From the IMG/VR virus record IMGVR_UViG_3300031673_000001: a stretch of DNA of 64,000 nucleotides; one strand, written 5' to 3'. The position numbers and the translations under genes are program-made. Origin of the DNA: a virus. Its lineage: Duplodnaviria > Caudoviricetes. Under the pieces are notes generated by a model. That model was not told the origin of the DNA. It made no database searches and saw nothing but the letters and a program-made list of their open reading frames with translations. Positions 3-44,638 of this stretch are shown one piece after another. Position 1 is the first letter of the stretch; every line of letters starts with the position of its first letter.

Positions 3-1487
3 ATCATCAACACTTGGAAAGAAACTATAGCTCAACTACAATTAAAAGATTTCGATCCAACTAAAGTTCAAACAGAAATAGATGTCTTACAAAAAGATTT
101 AGATTCTATTGAACTGCAAAATGAATCTCAAGAAAATCAACTGCTAACTCAAAAAGAACTTAAAATATATGAGTTAAAAAGTAAAGCAGATGAAGCTAAA
201 GAAGATCTCACCATAAGTTACAATAAAATTAAAGACGAATCAGTAGCTGAATGGAGAGAAGGTGAATCCAAAATAAATAAAAAAGTAAAAGAATTAATAG
301 AAGAGAAACATAAACTCGAAGTAGATGTTCAAACATTTAAAACTCAAGTTTTATCATTCAAGCAAAATATTAATAAAATCAATCAAAGCGTATTTGAATC
401 TAAAATATCATCATGCCCAACTTGTCTTCAAAAAATTACTGGTGATGTTAAACAACATCTAAAAGATGAAATTAAAAAATCTGAAGATTCTATTATAAAC
501 TGTGAAGAAAGTATTAAGAAATTTAATGATAGTATTTATGCACTTGGTTTAAAAATTACTGATGAACAACAAAAGTTAAATAATCTCAACATTCAATATG
601 ATATTGAATTAAAAGTATTAAAACAAAATCATGAAGAAAAACTTGAAGAAGTAAATGAAAGAATAAAAACTGTTCTTGAAAAAGTTGAAATAGCTGGAAA
701 AGAACAATTATCTATTCTTCGATCTAATTCACTTATAAAGATCAATCAATTAAATGAATCAATAAAGAAATTGTTATCCAAAAAAATAGAAGTTGAACTT
801 ATTAAACAAGAACTAGAATCATCTAAACAATCTTTACAAATAGCAGAGAACACAAAACAAAATCTTTTGAGAGATATTAGACAAAAAGAAGAAGAAGAAT
901 ATAATGAAACCCAATTGAATGGTTATATCAGTAGAGTTATAGAATATACAAAAGAGATTCAAGCTATTCAAAAATCAATTATATCTGAAAATAGACTATA
1001 TCAAATATATGATTTTTGGAAATCTGCTTATTCACCCACTGGTATTCCATCAACATTAATTGATGAAGCTATTCCATTTATGAATAAAAAAGTATCTGAA
1101 TATTTGGAGGAAATATCAAATGGTCGTTATATTATTTCATTTGATACCCAGGATGCAATCAAGTCAGGAGAAATGAGAGATAAAATTTCAGTTAAAGTTT
1201 TGGATACACATACAAGAGCAAATAAAAGACTTCAGTTATCAGGTGGTCAAACAAGATTAGTTGATATTGCAACAGTATTAACCCTTGGAGATTTACAATC
1301 AAAGAATTTAGGAATAAAAGTAAATCTATTAATATTTGATGAAATCTTTGATAGTTTGGATGCTCAAAATATTGATTATGTATCTAAGGTATTAATAAGA
1401 TTAAAGAAAGGAAAATCAATATATTTAATTTCACATACTCACCAAGACCAACTAGAAGCAGATCAAGTTCTTCAGTTTAAATCATAA
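3..1487 (+). CDS. sbcC: Rad50/SbcC/T4 gp46-like ABC-ATPase (recombination nuclease subunit), 5'-truncated by window edge
   Basis: Frame is open from position 3, well upstream of the track start at 771. Coiled coil with zinc hook CPTC (414-425), signature LSGGQ, Walker B LLIFDE, D-loop SLD, H-loop LISH. Confidence 0.93.
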   Translation: MINTWKETIAQLQLKDFDPTKVQTEIDVLQKDLDSIELQNESQENQLLTQKELKIYELKSKADEAKEDLTISYNKIKDESVAEWREGESKINKKVKELIEEKHKLEVDVQTFKTQVLSFKQNINKINQSVFESKISSCPTCLQKITGDVKQHLKDEIKKSEDSIINCEESIKKFNDSIYALGLKITDEQQKLNNLNIQYDIELKVLKQNHEEKLEEVNERIKTVLEKVEIAGKEQLSILRSNSLIKINQLNESIKKLLSKKIEVELIKQELESSKQSLQIAENTKQNLLRDIRQKEEEEYNETQLNGYISRVIEYTKEIQAIQKSIISENRLYQIYDFWKSAYSPTGIPSTLIDEAIPFMNKKVSEYLEEISNGRYIISFDTQDAIKSGEMRDKISVKVLDTHTRANKRLQLSGGQTRLVDIATVLTLGDLQSKNLGIKVNLLIFDEIFDSLDAQNIDYVSKVLIRLKKGKSIYLISHTHQDQLEADQVLQFKS

Positions 1488-1496
1488 GGAGGTTTA

Positions 1497-2519
1497 ATGA
1501 TAAGAATAGTAAATTGGTTGTTAACTCGTAGATGTAACCTAAATTGTGACTACTGTGCAATTGTAAAAAACTATCCCACCATGCCTTCTGAATATCCTCC
1601 TATGAGTCATTATATAAAAAATGAAATGACCACAGAGCAAGTTATCAAAGGATTAGATCAATTTCAGTTGCACAATCCAGATTGCTTTCATATCTGGTAT
1701 GGCGGCGAGCCAATTTTGAGGAAAGATTTAGCTGATATTATCAACCACTGTAATGAAAATTATATTCACTACACTATCATATCAAATAATACAAATGAAA
1801 TTATTCCATTGATTGAAAACTTATTTGATAACGTTGATCATATTCAAGGATTTACTGCATCTGTTGATCCATCATTTAATGAAAAAGGTAAGTTTGACAG
1901 AATAATAAAAAGCATATCTGGTTTTGAAAATCTTTTAAAACTCAAAGATCGTATTAATGATGTTGTTGCTGAAATAACAGTTATGAAACATAATGTAAAA
2001 TATCTATATGATCTTGTTAAACTATTAACAGAAAATGGGATCAGCAGTGATATAACATTTGTTGATATAGCAAAAAGTCCATTTTATGATTTCTCTAATA
2101 TAAGTGATGAAAACTTATTGGTAGAACAATCTTCAGAATTATCTGATGTATTTGATTCGTTAAATGATAGTGATTTAGATATTCATATGAAAGAAATCTT
2201 ATTACCAAAAATCTGGGAAATTCTACCATCAGAATTAGATTGTGAATTGGAGAAAGATCTTCATAATGTAACCGTTGATGCAGATGGAACGATTAGATTA
2301 TGTTTAAGAATAAGAGGAACTCATGCTCCAAAATTAGTTAAGGTATCAAATTTAATCGACTCAAAAGGTAACATATCATTTATTGCTGAAAAAGCAATTT
2401 CAAAAGATAAAGAAGTTCATTGTCTAGGATGTAACCATACATGCTTATTAATGAGTAAACATATTAATGAAACAGATCAAGGAACAGAAGATTTAATTCA
2501 TCTCGATAGGAGGGTATAA
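1497..2519 (+). CDS. Radical SAM enzyme with C-terminal Cys cluster (SPASM/twitch-like)
   Basis: CxxxCxxC (CNLNCDYC), GGEP motif, C-terminal C..CLGCNHTC; SD AGGAGG upstream. Confidence 0.88.
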   Translation: MIRIVNWLLTRRCNLNCDYCAIVKNYPTMPSEYPPMSHYIKNEMTTEQVIKGLDQFQLHNPDCFHIWYGGEPILRKDLADIINHCNENYIHYTIISNNTNEIIPLIENLFDNVDHIQGFTASVDPSFNEKGKFDRIIKSISGFENLLKLKDRINDVVAEITVMKHNVKYLYDLVKLLTENGISSDITFVDIAKSPFYDFSNISDENLLVEQSSELSDVFDSLNDSDLDIHMKEILLPKIWEILPSELDCELEKDLHNVTVDADGTIRLCLRIRGTHAPKLVKVSNLIDSKGNISFIAEKAISKDKEVHCLGCNHTCLLMSKHINETDQGTEDLIHLDRRV

Positions 2520-37199: not shown

Positions 37200-37222
37200 C
37201 TATATATATTAATAATTGAAAG
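37200..37222 (+). promoter_or_regulatory. Putative second-class promoter CTATATATATTAATAATTGA
   Basis: 19/20 identical to 42207-42226; precedes a + strand unit inside a - strand region. Confidence 0.6.
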
Positions 37223-37608: not shown

Positions 37609-38118
37609 GTGGGTATACATATAACAGACTTTGTTGGTATACCAGAAGATTTTATTATTGAAGATCACATGACAATGCGAGAAAGAATGGGTATTTTTGA
37701 TTATCCCAAACTTATTTCTCTTGAAATAATTAACAAGACAAATGCAGTTATTAAAACAACAGGTTATCTTAGAATTTCAGCAATATTAGCAGAAAATTAT
37801 CAACGAGAAATACAAGCAGTAGCTTCTGCAGCTGCATATTTAATGTGTCTTGATGAATTAGGATTAGTAGTTACTTCATTCAAGAGATTTAGTTTTGAAG
37901 AGTTAACATATCCTAGTAATAAAAGGGAAGGATTTAAAAAATTTATTCACACCATTGAAAAAGGAGAATTGGATATAACCATTCATATAGTCAATATCTT
38001 TCCTCTAATTCAGAATGGTAAATATTATATGGAAAGTGTTATTAAAAATCTTTTAATATTGGATGATATTGAATTAGATCGACAGAGAACCTTAATCGAA
38101 ATTACCGAACTCGATTAA
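37609..38118 (+). CDS. Hypothetical protein
   Basis: GTG start after GAGGA; ends at a bidirectional terminator. Confidence 0.65.
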   Translation: MGIHITDFVGIPEDFIIEDHMTMRERMGIFDYPKLISLEIINKTNAVIKTTGYLRISAILAENYQREIQAVASAAAYLMCLDELGLVVTSFKRFSFEELTYPSNKREGFKKFIHTIEKGELDITIHIVNIFPLIQNGKYYMESVIKNLLILDDIELDRQRTLIEITELD

Positions 38119-38127
38119 ACAACAGCG

Positions 38128-38168
38128 AAAAAAGGACTGACTAGATGCATAAGTCAGTCCTTTTTTTA
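38128..38168. terminator. Bidirectional intrinsic terminator
   Basis: A6-GGACTGACT-agatgcata-AGTCAGTCC-T8 between convergent genes. Confidence 0.9.
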
Positions 38169-38175
38169 CTCAGAT

Positions 38176-40188
38176 TTACTTAATGAAAAAGTTCAACTCA
38201 ATTTTCTCAACCACTCTGGTTGGTTCCAAGGTTACATTAACATGAAAAGTCTTTGTCTTTCTTTCATAATCCGTTGCCCCAACATCAATAGAATATGAAT
38301 CAAGACCTCGTTTGTTTTTTATAACCTCTAGAAACTCTGTTATTGCTCCTCCCACCTGACCCCAGGTAATAGGATCATTCTGTTCAAAGATAAAATATCT
38401 ACAGAATTGCTCAAGTGCTCTCTTACAATATAAAACAAGTCTTACAATATTTAAATCTTGTAATGCACTTGCTTTAGCTTGAGCGGTCAATTGTCCCCAA
38501 ACAACATAACCCGCTGAAAATTGAACAATTGGATTTAGTTGTTTTAGATACATCTGATCCCTTTGTCCAAGACGTGGATTATATCTAAGCTCCTTAATGT
38601 TATCTATTGCACCTCTATTAAATCCAGCAGCTGCAAACCAAAGCTGTGCAATATTGTCATTTCTTGGTAACAAGTATGACATATGATAAATCGGTGAGAA
38701 CCAAATATCTTGTCCTGTAAATGGATCAGATACTTTACTATATGATTCATATAATGATACATAATAATTATTATATGGATGACTACTTGTTCGTGTTGCT
38801 AATGCAGCTGTTACTGATACATTATCTCCATTATCAAGGATGCCAACACAATCTCTTCTAGTCGAACAAAGTGTGCTGATAGCTGTTTTTGTATCTGATG
38901 GATAACCAGCATCATACACAATTGAGAAATAAGTATTTTCTGTATCCAGGACTTCATCCACATAATTTCCATTATTCGGATTTGTTAGAATTCCTGTATA
39001 ACCTTGTTCAAGTAAAGTTGGTGCTGAAGATGCTGCCCAAACTCCAGAAGTATCAGTATTAAGACTTCTATCAAGTTTCCACAATGATCCTTCAGAACCT
39101 TTTCTTAAAGGTTTTGGTTCAGATGAACTAAATGCACTAGCAATATTTGAGTATGATTTCTTAATTGTATATGTAATTGATGAATCAGTATCAAAAGATG
39201 TAAAATCTGAAGATGTTGAATCCGTTGCCCAGGATTGAATTGCTGTATTTAAATCATTGGTTGACCAGACTTCCATTGTCTCACCATCAACACCTGATGA
39301 GTCGCCTAACCATCCATAGATTTCATTTCCTCTTCCATCTTTTGCAATAACTACATAAGATGCAGTCCCTGCTACAGCAGGTTCCCATTCAGAAAAGTCT
39401 TGCTTATTATCTGTAATTGTTGCGGAACCAGATGTTTTTACAACAACTGTTGTTCCAATATCTTTATCATAAGTTTTAACTGCTTGTTCATAACCACTTG
39501 TATAAGCTCCACTTGCAAGTTCCATATCCGCTCTTAAAACAGATGAATATGTTTCAAGAACAGATCCAATAAAAACTGACTCACCAGCTGAATCTACAGC
39601 ATTCGGGTCAAATGAAACTTCAAATGATTCAATTATAACATCATCATCATCCGACTGCTTCTCATATATATCTAGAACATAAACTCCATCTATCGTTGGG
39701 TTTGAGTGTATAGTAAGTCGTATTCCTAAAGAGTTATAATAATCACCTCTTCCAATTGGTCTTAAGAATGCAATTGGATTTTTTAAACCATCAACTTCAA
39801 GATTTGTTGTAATCTCACCTTTTGTATTTAAACTATCAACATAAGTGATTGAAGTTACTGAAGTACCATCACCAACCAATTGATTATCAATTCTAAAATT
39901 AGCGTAAGTAGCATCATCTGGTAATAGACGAATCCAAAATAACGCTCCAGATTCTCCTAAATGATTATATGCTACATATGGACCTTGTCCATAACTCTTT
40001 CCAAAGTCAACAATATTCGGTTCACCAAATTCTGAAATTAGTTCAGATCTTGAACCTAAAAATAGTAATTCATTATCTCTACCTTTATGTGTAAAACCGC
40101 ACAGAAAACCAATGGTTGACGGTACAGCTTGCACAAAAGCAGAGAGATCAATAATCTTGGTATAAACGCCTGGGCTCACATTTGACAT
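38176..40188 (-). CDS. Contractile tail sheath protein (gp18-like)
   Basis: MS..SPGVYTKIIDLS N-terminus; WFAAAGFNRG, LY..Q.NPIV, WGQ.T, LNIVRL..Y, FIFEQND..TW, P.R.VE.I.L.F. Confidence 0.95.
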   Translation of the reverse strand: MSNVSPGVYTKIIDLSAFVQAVPSTIGFLCGFTHKGRDNELLFLGSRSELISEFGEPNIVDFGKSYGQGPYVAYNHLGESGALFWIRLLPDDATYANFRIDNQLVGDGTSVTSITYVDSLNTKGEITTNLEVDGLKNPIAFLRPIGRGDYYNSLGIRLTIHSNPTIDGVYVLDIYEKQSDDDDVIIESFEVSFDPNAVDSAGESVFIGSVLETYSSVLRADMELASGAYTSGYEQAVKTYDKDIGTTVVVKTSGSATITDNKQDFSEWEPAVAGTASYVVIAKDGRGNEIYGWLGDSSGVDGETMEVWSTNDLNTAIQSWATDSTSSDFTSFDTDSSITYTIKKSYSNIASAFSSSEPKPLRKGSEGSLWKLDRSLNTDTSGVWAASSAPTLLEQGYTGILTNPNNGNYVDEVLDTENTYFSIVYDAGYPSDTKTAISTLCSTRRDCVGILDNGDNVSVTAALATRTSSHPYNNYYVSLYESYSKVSDPFTGQDIWFSPIYHMSYLLPRNDNIAQLWFAAAGFNRGAIDNIKELRYNPRLGQRDQMYLKQLNPIVQFSAGYVVWGQLTAQAKASALQDLNIVRLVLYCKRALEQFCRYFIFEQNDPITWGQVGGAITEFLEVIKNKRGLDSYSIDVGATDYERKTKTFHVNVTLEPTRVVEKIELNFFIK

Positions 40189-41312: not shown

Positions 41313-42095
41313 TTATTCTAAAAAAGTTCCACAATTAGAACAATACTTAGCTGATGATTTGGACTTTGTTCCACAAATAGAACACGTAAGTACAGCTTTG
41401 ATAGTTAATGGTTGATTAACTTGACCACCACTATTTGTTAAACCGCAAAGTTTAATAATTATAACTTTTGGATCCTCTAATTTACCCATTGAAGTATAAT
41501 TAAAATCCTGATTAATTTGAGATCCTTTTACAGTAATTCCTTCATCCTGGGCAGGTGTTACTCCAAGATCTTCAACATTACAATTAAATGATCTAATATC
41601 AGACATACCTCTTATTACTGATCTATCAGCATCTCCACTTGAATTGTAAGTCCAATCTCCTACAGAACCATAATGAGTATACTTAATAGGACTATCATAA
41701 TGATGGTGTACTTCATTAATAGTTTTAACAATCCAGGGTTCAGCAACTGGTTTTTCAAATGCAAATTCAATTCTTATAAAACCATCTTCAATCTTATCGC
41801 CACGATGCTCTTGAATTTGTTTTGTTTTTTGAATAAATTTAAATCTATTCCTAGCTGTTGTTCCTTTCAAAAAACCAGACAATTCAGTGGTTGTATTTGG
41901 ATCAATGACTAAAGCATTATTGTCTAAAACATCCTGCCCATCAATTTCAATTTTAATGGATGCTCTACGAGTATTCAAATTTTTTAATAATATGGAATAC
42001 TCTGATCCAAAAGGTAGGTAAACAGTATCATCCTTTATTCGAAGAATTTTACCATTCAATTTGAGTTCTGCTACTAACTGATCTTTATATGTCAT
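41313..42095 (-). CDS. Hypothetical protein with beta-rich N-domain and C-terminal double zinc ribbon
   Basis: EYSILLKN....RA...IEIDG.DV; C-terminal CSICG......YCSNCG; AGGAGG SD. Confidence 0.75.
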   Translation of the reverse strand: MTYKDQLVAELKLNGKILRIKDDTVYLPFGSEYSILLKNLNTRRASIKIEIDGQDVLDNNALVIDPNTTTELSGFLKGTTARNRFKFIQKTKQIQEHRGDKIEDGFIRIEFAFEKPVAEPWIVKTINEVHHHYDSPIKYTHYGSVGDWTYNSSGDADRSVIRGMSDIRSFNCNVEDLGVTPAQDEGITVKGSQINQDFNYTSMGKLEDPKVIIIKLCGLTNSGGQVNQPLTIKAVLTCSICGTKSKSSAKYCSNCGTFLE

Positions 42096-42175
42096 TTTAC
42101 TTCCTCCTTTTAACAGGTCACTGACTAAGACCTCGGATTTGCTTAAAGTCAGTTGGTTTATTTATTGCTTACATT

Positions 42176-42187
42176 TATTTGTTCTAA
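42176..42187 (-). promoter_or_regulatory. Putative late promoter motif TTAGAACAAATA
   Basis: Upstream of ORF 41313-42095, back-to-back with the second motif class. Confidence 0.5.
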
Positions 42188-42206
42188 TTATTTAAATACG
42201 ATTCTG

Positions 42207-42230
42207 CTATATATATAAATAATTGATAAG
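42207..42230 (+). promoter_or_regulatory. Putative second-class promoter CTATATATATAAATAATTGA
   Basis: Near-identical to 37200-37219; precedes the ncRNA candidate. Confidence 0.6.
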
Positions 42231-42468
42231 GTAGGAGTTGCGCTGTTTTTTATAAAACTATGCGCTCCGACTTCAGAGCAGGAGACCTATGCTGGTGGGG
42301 GTATTCGGAGCGATCATCTCCGGACTCTATCCCAGTAAGGATGATCTCTCCTGCTCTGATTTTAAAACTAACTATAAGGGGGTGATATTTATGTAAACTA
42401 TGAATGGAAGAGAAGTGACAAAATATTATATTCGATTGTTTTAACCTTATATCACTTCTCTTTTTTTT
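42231..42468 (+). ncRNA. Candidate structured non-coding RNA
   Basis: GC-rich core (55/100 G+C at 42261-42360 by hand count); 13-bp outer stem 42273-42285/42347-42359 with inner helices; promoter motif upstream and terminator downstream. Confidence 0.6.
42409..42468 (+). terminator. Intrinsic terminator, 10-bp stem with 33-nt loop
   Basis: AGAGAAGTGA / TCACTTCTCT followed by a T run. Confidence 0.75.
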
Positions 42469-42475
42469 CTAAACT

Positions 42476-42625
42476 TTATTTAAGTACAGAAACAATTGTT
42501 AATAATATTGCAATAGCTAAAACTCCATAGATCCATTTAACTGGAAATTTACCTAACACCCAACCAAATAAACCTCCGTATAGCACAAGTAAAAGTTCTT
42601 TTACTGGCACATTTCCAATATTCAT
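42476..42625 (-). CDS. 49-aa membrane protein not in the ORF track
   Basis: MNIGNVPVKELLLVLYGGLFGWVLGKFPVKWIYGVLAIAILLTIVSVLK*; AAGGAG SD. Confidence 0.7.
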   Translation of the reverse strand: MNIGNVPVKELLLVLYGGLFGWVLGKFPVKWIYGVLAIAILLTIVSVLK

Positions 42626-42673
42626 ATTATGCTCCTTTGTAATAAAAATTCATTGGTTTATATTTTTATGGTT

Positions 42674-44638
42674 CTATAAAGAACTGGAACTTGAACTACT
42701 AGATGAAGAGACAGAGCTTGATGAGCTACTAGCAAGAACCTGTATTTGTATCCTAGCTTGATCAAATCCCGACATACAATCAAACGTACCGGGTTCATCA
42801 AAATTTGCAAATCCTCCAGTCGTAACTTCCTCATACAAAACTATATAATTTGTTGAATCTGAACACCCTTCAAAAGAAGGATGTGTATATATTAACAGTA
42901 CATCTGTAGAATCTGTACATCGTGGTTCAGCAATGATTCCTACAGACGTACTATCTACTACCAATGTAGATGTGCCATCAGCAATTAGCTCACCTCCTGT
43001 TACCTCATTATAAACAATAGCAGTTGAATCGAAATCTGGTGGGATACATACTAATCTTATATATCGAATTTCCTCTATAAATGGAAAGAAATCAGTCTGT
43101 CTTATATCTGTTACAGCACCAATATCAAAATAAGAATCACAATCATATGTTTCTCTTTGATAAAATAAACTGGTAGTTGAATCATTCAAACAAATTGTAC
43201 AACTATCAGTTGCATCAATATTCTCATGTGTACAGCAAGGATTACCATCTCCTGTTACCCAATCATAAATAGGAAATTCTACTCTTGGAGTTTCAGCATA
43301 ATCCTCTACAATAATCGTATTAAATAAAGGGTTATCAATTTGTAACAACTCAAGTAATAATAATCTTGCTCTATATGGTTTGAAAAAGTTAATAACAGGT
43401 TTAAGATCCTCAAAGAATGAATCTATACCAAACATAATAAAACCCATATTAACAAAACCATATCCAAGGTTGATACGAACCCAAGATGAAAGGTCTTTCA
43501 TTAAACTAAACATTAACTCCGAATCTGTTAATGTGGTAGAATCTAATGCACTCTTCAATGAAGGATTTATTAATGTAAGAAACATTTCAGCATCTAATCT
43601 ATTTTGTAAAAAGTTTCTTGGATTCTCTCTCGTAAATCCATCATAAAATGTTGTAAGACCAGATATAATTCCTGATCTATCTATTGGTCTAGCAGTTGCA
43701 ATTTCAAACTCATCTATTATATCAGTGACATTTGCTACTGAAGTTCCATCATAGCATATAAAACTATCTCCAGTTTGACCAACGTTGTATTGTTTATTAA
43801 ATAAATATACGATTGATAAATAAAGTTCTAATAAAGAAACAACTTCACCTATTTCACTAACTTCAGCATTAGCTGTTGGGACTACACCATTATCTAAATA
43901 ATATTGAAATTGATCTTGTACAAGTCTTATAAGAATTCCAATTTCAGGACCATCAATTGAAGCTACTGGACGAATTCCCAAATAAGGAGTTTTAGATGGT
44001 AAGTTAATATCATTTATTTGTTGAAGTTGTAATATTTGATCTTGAGTATATAACCAGTGAGGATCATTAGCAGTTAATCTATCATAATCAAATGTAAGTT
44101 TGGAAGGATTTGTTGTTGTTCCAGCAATTGCAGTTCCTTCAAAAATTAAAGAGTCCACTGCTTCTAATTTTATAAAAAATTCATATATATCTACTTTTGT
44201 AACACCATAATATTGTAATACTTCAACTATTGCTTGTGGTGTTCCTTTTCTCTTATATAAATTAACAAGATCTAAAAAGAAATTAATTTTTAAATCAATA
44301 GGATTATCGTCAGGTCCTTTTAATTGTGTAGAATGATTAAAACCAAAACTTCTAAATAATTCATCAAGATCAGGATTAGAAAGAGTTTCAACATTTGTTA
44401 TTTTAGAACTTGCAGAAGCAATGGTTTGATGTGCTGCATACCAATCAAGTAAAAAACTTCTCAAACGTAACCAGTCATCTGAACTACTAGGAGGAGCTCC
44501 ACCAAGAACAAAGTCAAAATACAATCCAGCTTTTGCTTTAGAATCTTTAGCAAGAGAATCGAGAACATTAGTCATACCAGCTACAGTGTCTCCACTTGCC
44601 GCAGATAATATGTCCCAAAAGTTGTCTACTGTAAACAA
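42674..44638 (-). CDS. Baseplate wedge / tail protein I-like (gp7-like) with poly-Ser C-terminus
   Basis: LDELF.SFGF ... LVNLYKRKGTPQAI.EVL motif; ends ASSSSSSVSSSSSSSSSL. Confidence 0.62.
   Translation of the reverse strand: MFTVDNFWDILSAASGDTVAGMTNVLDSLAKDSKAKAGLYFDFVLGGAPPSSSDDWLRLRSFLLDWYAAHQTIASASSKITNVETLSNPDLDELFRSFGFNHSTQLKGPDDNPIDLKINFFLDLVNLYKRKGTPQAIVEVLQYYGVTKVDIYEFFIKLEAVDSLIFEGTAIAGTTTNPSKLTFDYDRLTANDPHWLYTQDQILQLQQINDINLPSKTPYLGIRPVASIDGPEIGILIRLVQDQFQYYLDNGVVPTANAEVSEIGEVVSLLELYLSIVYLFNKQYNVGQTGDSFICYDGTSVANVTDIIDEFEIATARPIDRSGIISGLTTFYDGFTRENPRNFLQNRLDAEMFLTLINPSLKSALDSTTLTDSELMFSLMKDLSSWVRINLGYGFVNMGFIMFGIDSFFEDLKPVINFFKPYRARLLLLELLQIDNPLFNTIIVEDYAETPRVEFPIYDWVTGDGNPCCTHENIDATDSCTICLNDSTTSLFYQRETYDCDSYFDIGAVTDIRQTDFFPFIEEIRYIRLVCIPPDFDSTAIVYNEVTGGELIADGTSTLVVDSTSVGIIAEPRCTDSTDVLLIYTHPSFEGCSDSTNYIVLYEEVTTGGFANFDEPGTFDCMSGFDQARIQIQVLASSSSSSVSSSSSSSSSSL

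Follow-up and report, generated by a model that had tools for sequence, protein, structure and literature searches.

The 64,000-nucleotide (nt) stretch analysed here (IMG/VR record IMGVR_UViG_3300031673_000001, hereafter the window) is an AT-rich piece, with 30.8% GC, of an uncultured contractile-tailed jumbo phage, and a 380-nt gap between two of its minus-strand genes raises a question: what is the short plus-strand unit that lies there between a promoter-like motif (42207-42226) and a terminator? A sequence-only reading had recognized this unit with both of its boundaries, and had proposed that it is a novel structured non-coding RNA with mutually exclusive folds. The gap indeed holds an 87-nt rod-shaped element (42273-42359, plus strand) that matches no family in Rfam 15 and whose helices covary in homologues; judged by these substitutions, it is almost certainly a real, conserved structured RNA. 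As for its role, we give about even credence to the view that it is a small, stable RNA of the phage that forms part of an intrinsic terminator and probably binds a protein in trans. The claim of mutually exclusive folds did not survive.

The element stands out by its composition, since the GC-rich core that had been noticed in an AT-rich genome has, from one arm of the outer stem to the other, 54% GC against 30.8% for the window, and all the helices that had been listed earlier are present in the DNA. Helices were derived with RNAalifold and by explicit counting of pairs, with results in agreement, and covariation was scored on 20 aligned sequences. The parts of the fold are as follows.

42273-85 with 42347-59, plus strand: P1, the outer stem of 13 base pairs (bp), with compensatory changes in all 13 pairs and 93% of cells paired
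42286-95 with 42332-40, plus strand: P2, 9 bp, CCT-(A)-TGCTGG with CCAGTAAGG, with compensatory changes in 8 of 9 pairs and 96% of cells paired
42298-301 with 42325-28, plus strand: P2a, 4 bp, following the junction UG at 42296-97; found by RNAalifold, covarying
42304-10 with 42318-24, plus strand: P3, 7 bp, TTCGGAG with CTCCGGA, of which the inner five pairs are solid
42311-42317, plus strand: 7-nt apical loop, in which 42312-42317 (GAUCAU) is the 5' strand of a pseudoknot
42329-31, plus strand: conserved unpaired junction AUC
42341-42346, plus strand: 6-nt 3' bulge AUGAUC between P2 and P1, abutting P1; the 3' strand of the pseudoknot

Each of the four nested helices covaries; across the 20 sequences the paired fraction of cells is 93.7%, and compensatory changes occur in 35 of 39 pairs. 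None of 500 shuffled controls reached the observed values of pairing and compensation, and sliding the partners by one to three columns lowers the paired fraction to 44-55%, so that the covariation test suggested for this structure on collected homologues came out in its favor. P2a, the fourth nested helix, goes beyond the fold first described. Within P2, the bulged A at 42289 is nearly invariant and the G-U wobble 42291/42336 is kept in 18 of the 20 sequences. Helix and loop lengths are almost invariant among the homologues, and conservation is higher in unpaired than in paired columns (0.40 versus 0.88 bits); in the alignment, such conserved unpaired columns and fixed helix lengths are hallmarks of a tertiary fold under selection. 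The alignment contains 97 G-U cells against six A-C cells and U-runs occur on the same strand only, and because of this the RNA strand is the plus strand of the window, antisense to the flanking genes. The UAUG/GUAAG in P2 presumably resembles the 11-nt GNRA tetraloop receptor, from which it is one nucleotide short, and we make no use of this likeness. A binding site for CsrA (AAGGAUGA in the window) was considered and rejected, for its GGA belongs to P2 and covaries away in homologues.

Two further helices had been thought to compete with the rod. The first joins GATCATC (42312-18) to GATGATC (42340-46), and six of its seven pairs form the loop-bulge helix listed above, with 94-98% of its cells paired and compensatory changes in four of the six pairs. 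Seven distinct complementary duplexes occur among 20 homologues: GAUCAU/AUGAUC, GGUCAU/AUGACC, GGUCAC/GUGACC, GGUUAU/AUAACC, GAUCAC/GUGGUC, a 4-bp CCAC/GUGG and, in the most divergent member, GAGUUA/UAACUC. The helix has no nucleotide in common with the nested helices and covaries along with them. Thus the pairing of GATCAT with ATGATC is, on covariation, a conserved apical-loop to internal-loop pseudoknot compatible with the rod, and no switch is required because the two share no nucleotide. The rivalry with the rod therefore falls away, and so does the seventh pair, C42318-G42340: homologue L002 has A in place of G42340, and the matching change (C to U) is in the P2 partner, not on the loop side. 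The second helix, CGCTCCGA (42263-70) with TCGGAGCG (42305-12), is present in the window but has no counterpart in the other homologues; because the leader sequence differs in every homologue, it is a coincidence of the window. As to a riboswitch, we found no conserved downstream gene, and the only alternative helix is this window-specific one.

The homologues were collected from IMG/VR loci (numbered L001 and so on) obtained through relatives of the two proteins that flank the gap; between such loci the intergenic region, including the hairpin core, is about 72% identical by BLAST. Extra copies came from degenerate pattern scans of viral and metagenome contigs. A covariance model, R1, was built from 11 sequences and used to search loci reached through the neighboring proteins, and it alone found L012, L013, L015, L046 and L056, none of which was in the seed or had been caught by sequence patterns; L056 scores only 25 bits. 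The resulting 22 members, which come from contigs of related uncultured jumbo phages, all have the same strand relative to the conserved neighbors and occupy the same syntenic site. Read in the orientation of the window, three minus-strand genes (sheath, 235-aa and 260-aa) come first; the plus-strand unit follows, made up of promoter motif, variable cargo and element, and convergent with it on the minus strand there are finally a 305-aa gene (in most relatives) and a baseplate-like gene.

Searches beyond these loci gave little. There is no DNA match to the intergenic region in GenBank phages, an exact 22-mer was not found in IMG/VR, and two degenerate patterns, which detect close relatives only, had no match in one genome each of 185,579 prokaryotic species. 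The Rfam 15 search that had been suggested with Infernal matched no family: the 64-kb window gave no match at gathering score, 41900-42800 gave only noise-level matches (at most 23.5 bits, E of at least 0.14), and 10 homologous loci gave nothing over the element. We found no published description of the fold. In a screen of IMG/VR, Fremin, Bhatt and Kyrpides (2023; PMC10690425) reported 8,495 candidate structured RNAs (csRNAs), 1,241 of them overlapping predicted terminators; the text of that article neither describes the motif nor mentions jumbo phages, and the element may already be among its candidates, which were drawn from the same viral contig collection.

P1 can be seen as part of a terminator. 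In 12 of the 22 homologues it is directly followed by a run of six to nine U residues, and because of this arrangement of stem and U-tract the element is predicted to be an intrinsic terminator in those twelve. The likeness to Rho-independent terminators thus lies in a GC-rich P1 (9-13 bp) with its U-run, and this very part is what remains in the relatives without the inner domain: L048 and L055 have a plain hairpin and U-run at the same site, with a stem like the P1 of other members. However, the element differs from such terminators in its loop, which is not the usual 3-8 nt but a conserved, covarying 61-nt domain with three helices and the pseudoknot, and a simple terminator scan does not call it. 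It also differs in that the fold persists where the U-run is absent. The full fold is kept without a U-run after it in L001, L002, L004, L006, L051, L058, L059 and L062; the window has a U4 run only, and the window, L001 and L002 each have another strong terminator no farther than about 100-230 nt downstream. As judged from these comparisons, termination can therefore be separated from the inner domain, because P1 and the U-run survive loss of the domain, because the domain with P1 is kept where P1 is not the terminator, and because it is kept where nothing needs terminating or stabilizing.

A further comparison is found within the window. The promoter motif has a 20-nt consensus (CTATATATATwAATAATTGA) and occurs there twice, at 37200 (one mismatch) and at 42207, where 0.13 copies are expected by chance, and both copies precede the only plus-strand islands of the region. 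The other island, with the motif at 37200 and an open reading frame (ORF) at 37609-38118, ends (38125-38170) in a simple hairpin that stands between A5 and U7 and looks bidirectional. Because this island ends in a plain hairpin and U-run, a complex fold is unneeded for termination by this class of polymerase and promoter.

The explanation that we prefer would run as follows. A phage promoter-like motif would drive a short plus-strand unit of which the 87-nt element is the only constant part. P1, P2, P2a and P3 would stack as a rod, with the 7-nt loop pairing to the 6-nt 3' bulge. In most relatives P1 and the U-run would stop the polymerase, and the window would use the hairpin and U8 about 100 nt downstream. 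The inner domain, locked by the pseudoknot, would be a separate functional module, kept even without an upstream gene or terminator duty, and it could be lost while the terminator of P1 and U-run remains. In three lineages flanking tRNA-like punctuation would cut the RNA free. The freed and stable RNA would then act in trans, most likely by showing a fixed three-dimensional surface to a phage or host protein, the candidate recognition surface being the bulged A, the conserved G-U wobble and the UG/AUC junction.

The tRNA-like sequences directly abut the element in L004 (3234-3305, minus strand), L051 (3200-3269, minus strand) and L062 (1109-1182, minus strand), 3' of it in the first two and 5' of it in L062. 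Each folds as a cloverleaf whose acceptor stem has 7 bp and which also has D and T arms and an encoded NCCA; the loop of its anticodon arm, however, is only 4-5 nt long, so that the cloverleaves are anticodon-less. That of L062 has a canonical GGUUCGAAUCC T arm and is the only one called by ARAGORN, as "tRNA-???". Such neighbors could be processing punctuation or decoys, and their abutment suggests that selection favors an RNA that is discrete and has defined ends. Small stable RNAs in a phage tRNA cluster are known from the species 1 and 2 RNAs of T4, and RNA ends made by tRNA-like punctuation from MALAT1/mascRNA. The element resembles these cases in abutting a CCA-encoding cloverleaf in three lineages, and by analogy the cloverleaf would give it defined ends via RNase P or RNase Z. 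Here, however, the tRNA-like partners have no anticodon loop, such a neighbor is absent from most members, and processing is putative.

Several points weigh against a trans-acting RNA. The sequencing runs that contain DNA of the window are all DNA metagenomes from soil or marine sediment, with no RNA run among them, and transcription, RNA ends and stability of the element are what we infer from the sequence. At least two relatives, L048 and L055, do without the inner domain, and in the more distant L014 (4446-4530, minus strand) a 13-bp P1-like stem with U7 encloses an unrelated insert of about 45 nt, so that the terminator loop appears to tolerate different inserts; given these three loci, an accessory or purely cis role is possible. 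No partner protein was identified for the element, and its constant 260-aa neighbor has no informative family. Finally, the covariation of loop and bulge fits an intramolecular pseudoknot and an intermolecular contact alike.

The main rival, which we consider possible, is accordingly a purely cis-acting 3'-end module without any trans function: a terminator combined with a barrier to 3' exonucleases (retroregulator-like) for the variable cassette, which would also insulate the convergent late genes from antisense read-through. The element always lies within the last 250 nt or so of the plus-strand unit, the U-run directly follows in the 12 members already mentioned, upstream ORFs stop no more than about 10 nt from P1 at many loci, and P1 with its U-run outlives the inner domain. 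Nevertheless, the window, L001 and L053 keep the intact fold with no cargo ORF, a plain hairpin and U-run is enough elsewhere in the same genome, and the eight homologues without the U-run conserve the element fully, although it does not serve there as the terminator. In addition, the conserved unpaired nucleotides and the covarying pseudoknot would be superfluous for termination.

A bolder version of the trans-acting explanation, which we regard as doubtful, would make the element the founding member of an undescribed class of small stable phage RNAs. Its pseudoknot-locked protein-binding module would be released by termination or by tRNA-like punctuation and would act as a trans decoy or sponge of an RNA-binding enzyme from host or phage, possibly as a loop-bulge dimer, co-encoded with anticodon-less tRNA mimics.

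It is improbable that the element is a terminator responsive to a ligand or protein, with an aptamer inside the hairpin, in which folding of the inner domain would time the closure of P1 and so set the antisense read-through into the late genes. The 3' strand of the pseudoknot does abut the 3' strand of P1, the conserved junction nucleotides could form a pocket, and what lies downstream is the antisense of late structural genes; but the second strong terminator in the window, L001 and L002 would stop read-through anyway, no anti-terminator pairing is conserved, and the gene context hints at no ligand.

Pairing of loop and bulge between molecules, giving antiparallel dimers or rings like those of the phi29 pRNA, possibly in virion assembly, is very unlikely in our estimate. 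About 20 stacked bp, or some two helical turns, separate loop and bulge, which would strain a contact in cis and suit a side-by-side dimer, and the element lies inside the tail and baseplate module. Furthermore, it shares with the phi29 pRNA that it is a phage RNA with paired 5' and 3' ends and a hairpin loop complementary to a bulge, kept by covariation, which is equally compatible with contacts in cis and in trans. To our knowledge, however, pRNA is confined to phi29-like podoviruses, whereas the phage here is a contractile-tailed jumbo phage, and the element has neither a sequence or Rfam match to pRNA nor a three-way junction. That some relatives have lost the domain speaks against its being essential for assembly. 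Pseudoknots between apical and internal loops in cis are documented (PMC5009743).

In IS3-family elements, in barley yellow dwarf virus and in further plant viruses, such apical loop-internal loop (ALIL) pseudoknots stimulate frameshifting (Mazauric et al. 2008, as cited in PMC5009743). The element shares with them the pairing of apical and internal loops, but it has no upstream slippery heptamer (2 of 22 flanks, as by chance) and no overlapping downstream frame, and it lies after stop codons or in ORF-less units and ends in a U-run. A frameshift-stimulating role is excluded, as there are no slippery sites and no conserved frame through or beyond the element.

A new class of small self-cleaving ribozyme, a twister-like rod with an apical-loop pseudoknot, is highly improbable. 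Small ribozymes are numerous in phages, and the topology, the conserved unpaired nucleotides and the G-U wobble resemble theirs, but no Rfam ribozyme model matched even at E values up to 10, we found no genomic logic for cleavage, and only about 10 unpaired positions are conserved.

The remaining explanations have little to recommend them. The switch RNA with two exclusive folds, or else a 6S-like decoy of RNA polymerase, proposed in the sequence-only reading is scarcely credible: both extra helices do exist in the window's own sequence, but one is the compatible pseudoknot and the other is unconserved. What defines 6S RNA is a rod, about 180 nt long, whose large central bubble imitates an open promoter; the 87-nt core with its small internal loops is unlike it in size and shape and gives no match to 6S in Rfam. 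The same reading's third suggestion, a sponge for a defense protein, found no support. Least of all do we credit a small protein gene, either the 35-codon frame 42289-42396, opening with the nearly invariant AUG in P2, or the 41-codon ORF 42260-42385: a MLVGVFGAIISGLYPSKDD-like peptide is readable in about 9 of 14 homologues, but the 35-codon frame has a frameshift or stop in 5 of 14 sequences, lacks its ATG in 3 of 14, has no Shine-Dalgarno sequence and shows codon-position entropies of 0.50/0.77/0.72 with no third-position excess, the compensatory changes in the stems account for the conservation, and the 41-codon ORF, which had been named as what homologues might conserve instead of an RNA, starts within the non-conserved leader and is not conserved.

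What is found here is of a known kind, a terminator-embedded structured RNA; what is new is a fold without Rfam match and with unusually clean structural support, as strong as 22 sequences allow. Few phage non-coding RNAs are understood, and this one is short enough for immediate biochemistry. A terminator stem with a removable, conserved tertiary domain is an unusual modular anatomy that offers a clean experimental handle, for which natural variants exist with the domain deleted (L048, L055), without ORFs (window, L001, L053) and with tRNA-like punctuation (L004, L051, L062). Should the domain turn out to bind a protein of host or phage, jumbo-phage biology would gain a new kind of RNA effector; should it do no more than tune termination or the stability of the 3' end, it would exemplify how a terminator can incorporate a tertiary fold. 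In a comparison with the Y RNA associated with Ro60, the ACAGCA handle was absent in and next to the element at the 22 loci, which sets the element apart from RNAs with that handle, and no TROVE gene was present in the loci examined.

Outside the element, the unit and its flanks in the window contain the following features.

41313-42095, minus strand: gene of the 260-aa protein with a C-terminal zinc ribbon, on one flank of the gap
42207-42226, plus strand: promoter-like motif CTATATATATAAATAATTGA, back to back with an opposite-facing motif before the 260-aa gene
42231-42272, plus strand: leader, a window-specific hairpin (GGAGUUGCGC...GCGCUCC) that includes CGCTCCGA, from minimum free energy (MFE) folding
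42360-42363, plus strand: four U residues (U4) following P1, in the window a weak terminator at best
42377-42396, plus strand: strong Shine-Dalgarno sequence (AAGGGGGUGA) followed by the start-stop AUG-UAA
42406-42468, plus strand: hairpin and U8, the unit's terminator in the window, from the MFE fold; homologous terminators in L001 and L002
other flank of the gap, minus strand: 49-codon ORF, then the gene of a 654-aa virion protein

The same promoter motif lies upstream of the cassette in L001, L002, L004, L006, L012, L015, L041 and L042, and its presumed promoter activity is deduced from this sequence evidence. The whole 238-nt unit has a folding energy of -75.9 kcal/mol, which none of 200 dinucleotide shuffles equals (z = -5.3), and the sequence of the leader is conserved in none of the homologues. 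The start-stop at 42377-42396 looks like a remnant of a decaying small ORF. Its counterpart in L002 is a 21-codon ORF, truncated and running into the terminator, and that in L001 is a 48-codon Gly/Pro/Lys-rich frame with no ATG; the idea that the small ORF of L001 is DUF5320-like was dropped, its peptide having no Pfam match.

The stretch between promoter motif and element holds up to several small ORFs, or no cargo at all: a credible ORF is lacking in the window, L001 and L053. At other loci the products of the cargo include small membrane and zinc-finger proteins, PilX_N proteins and pilin-like proteins that carry an N-terminal methylation motif. Pilin-type cargo (N_methyl, PilX_N), which is unexpected in a module of tail genes, was found in L012 (4353-4718, minus strand), L013 (5769-6872, minus strand), L046 (1512-3315, minus strand) and L058 (1801-3282, minus strand). 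L058 also contains a second, decayed copy of the element at about 1440-1500 (minus strand), after a 65-codon ORF, in which the pseudoknot strands (GGUCAUCAC/GUGAUGACC) are now adjacent and form a simple hairpin with U7, a terminator; this copy suggests that cargo is inserted by recombination between terminator copies. A single-stranded DNA site like the attC of integrons was considered and rejected, as there is no integrase and only one copy of the element per cassette region.

Other structured segments occur near the end of the unit. A second structured RNA, starting with GAUAGUUAGUCAACGUCCGGA, is found in L042 (1632-1760, plus strand) and, apparently homologous, in L040 (downstream of 4326, minus strand), and at both loci it follows the element and precedes the final terminator. 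A different structured segment takes this place in L006, and L053 has an ORF-less leader of about 190 nt. To judge from these loci, the unit seems to end in a small array of RNA modules.

The sheath protein of the window (38176-40188, minus strand) has about 29% identity to sheaths of PBS1/AR9-type phages, and the 305-aa gene has a weak Metallophos match in Pfam at one locus. The plus strand of the unit is divergent from the 260-aa gene, and late structural genes converge on it from the right. For the 260-aa protein, Pfam gives only a sub-threshold zinc ribbon and PHROGs nothing, and its AlphaFold model (mean pLDDT 55.6) is too poor for a fold search; with no informative family and such a model, the protein was dropped as a candidate RNA-binding partner of the element. 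It has more than 1,300 relatives in metagenomes, so the element may be widespread in soil and sediment viromes.

The 260-aa gene carries a structured RNA of its own. A conserved H-type pseudoknot lies in its 5' untranslated region (window 42115-42153, minus strand), just upstream of its Shine-Dalgarno sequence, and consists of stem S1, ACUGACU/AGUCAGU (42147-53 with 42120-26), and stem S2, AGGUC/GACCU (42129-33 with 42115-19). Both this pseudoknot and that of the element contain GGUC/GACC, and a link between them was rejected, there being no parallel change across loci. Over 14 loci, 94% of cells in the upstream pseudoknot are paired, and S2 covaries (GGUC, GGGU, GAUU and GGUU, each with its matching partner). 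By analogy with the operator pseudoknot of T4 gene 32, which has a like position, it may be a candidate translational operator.

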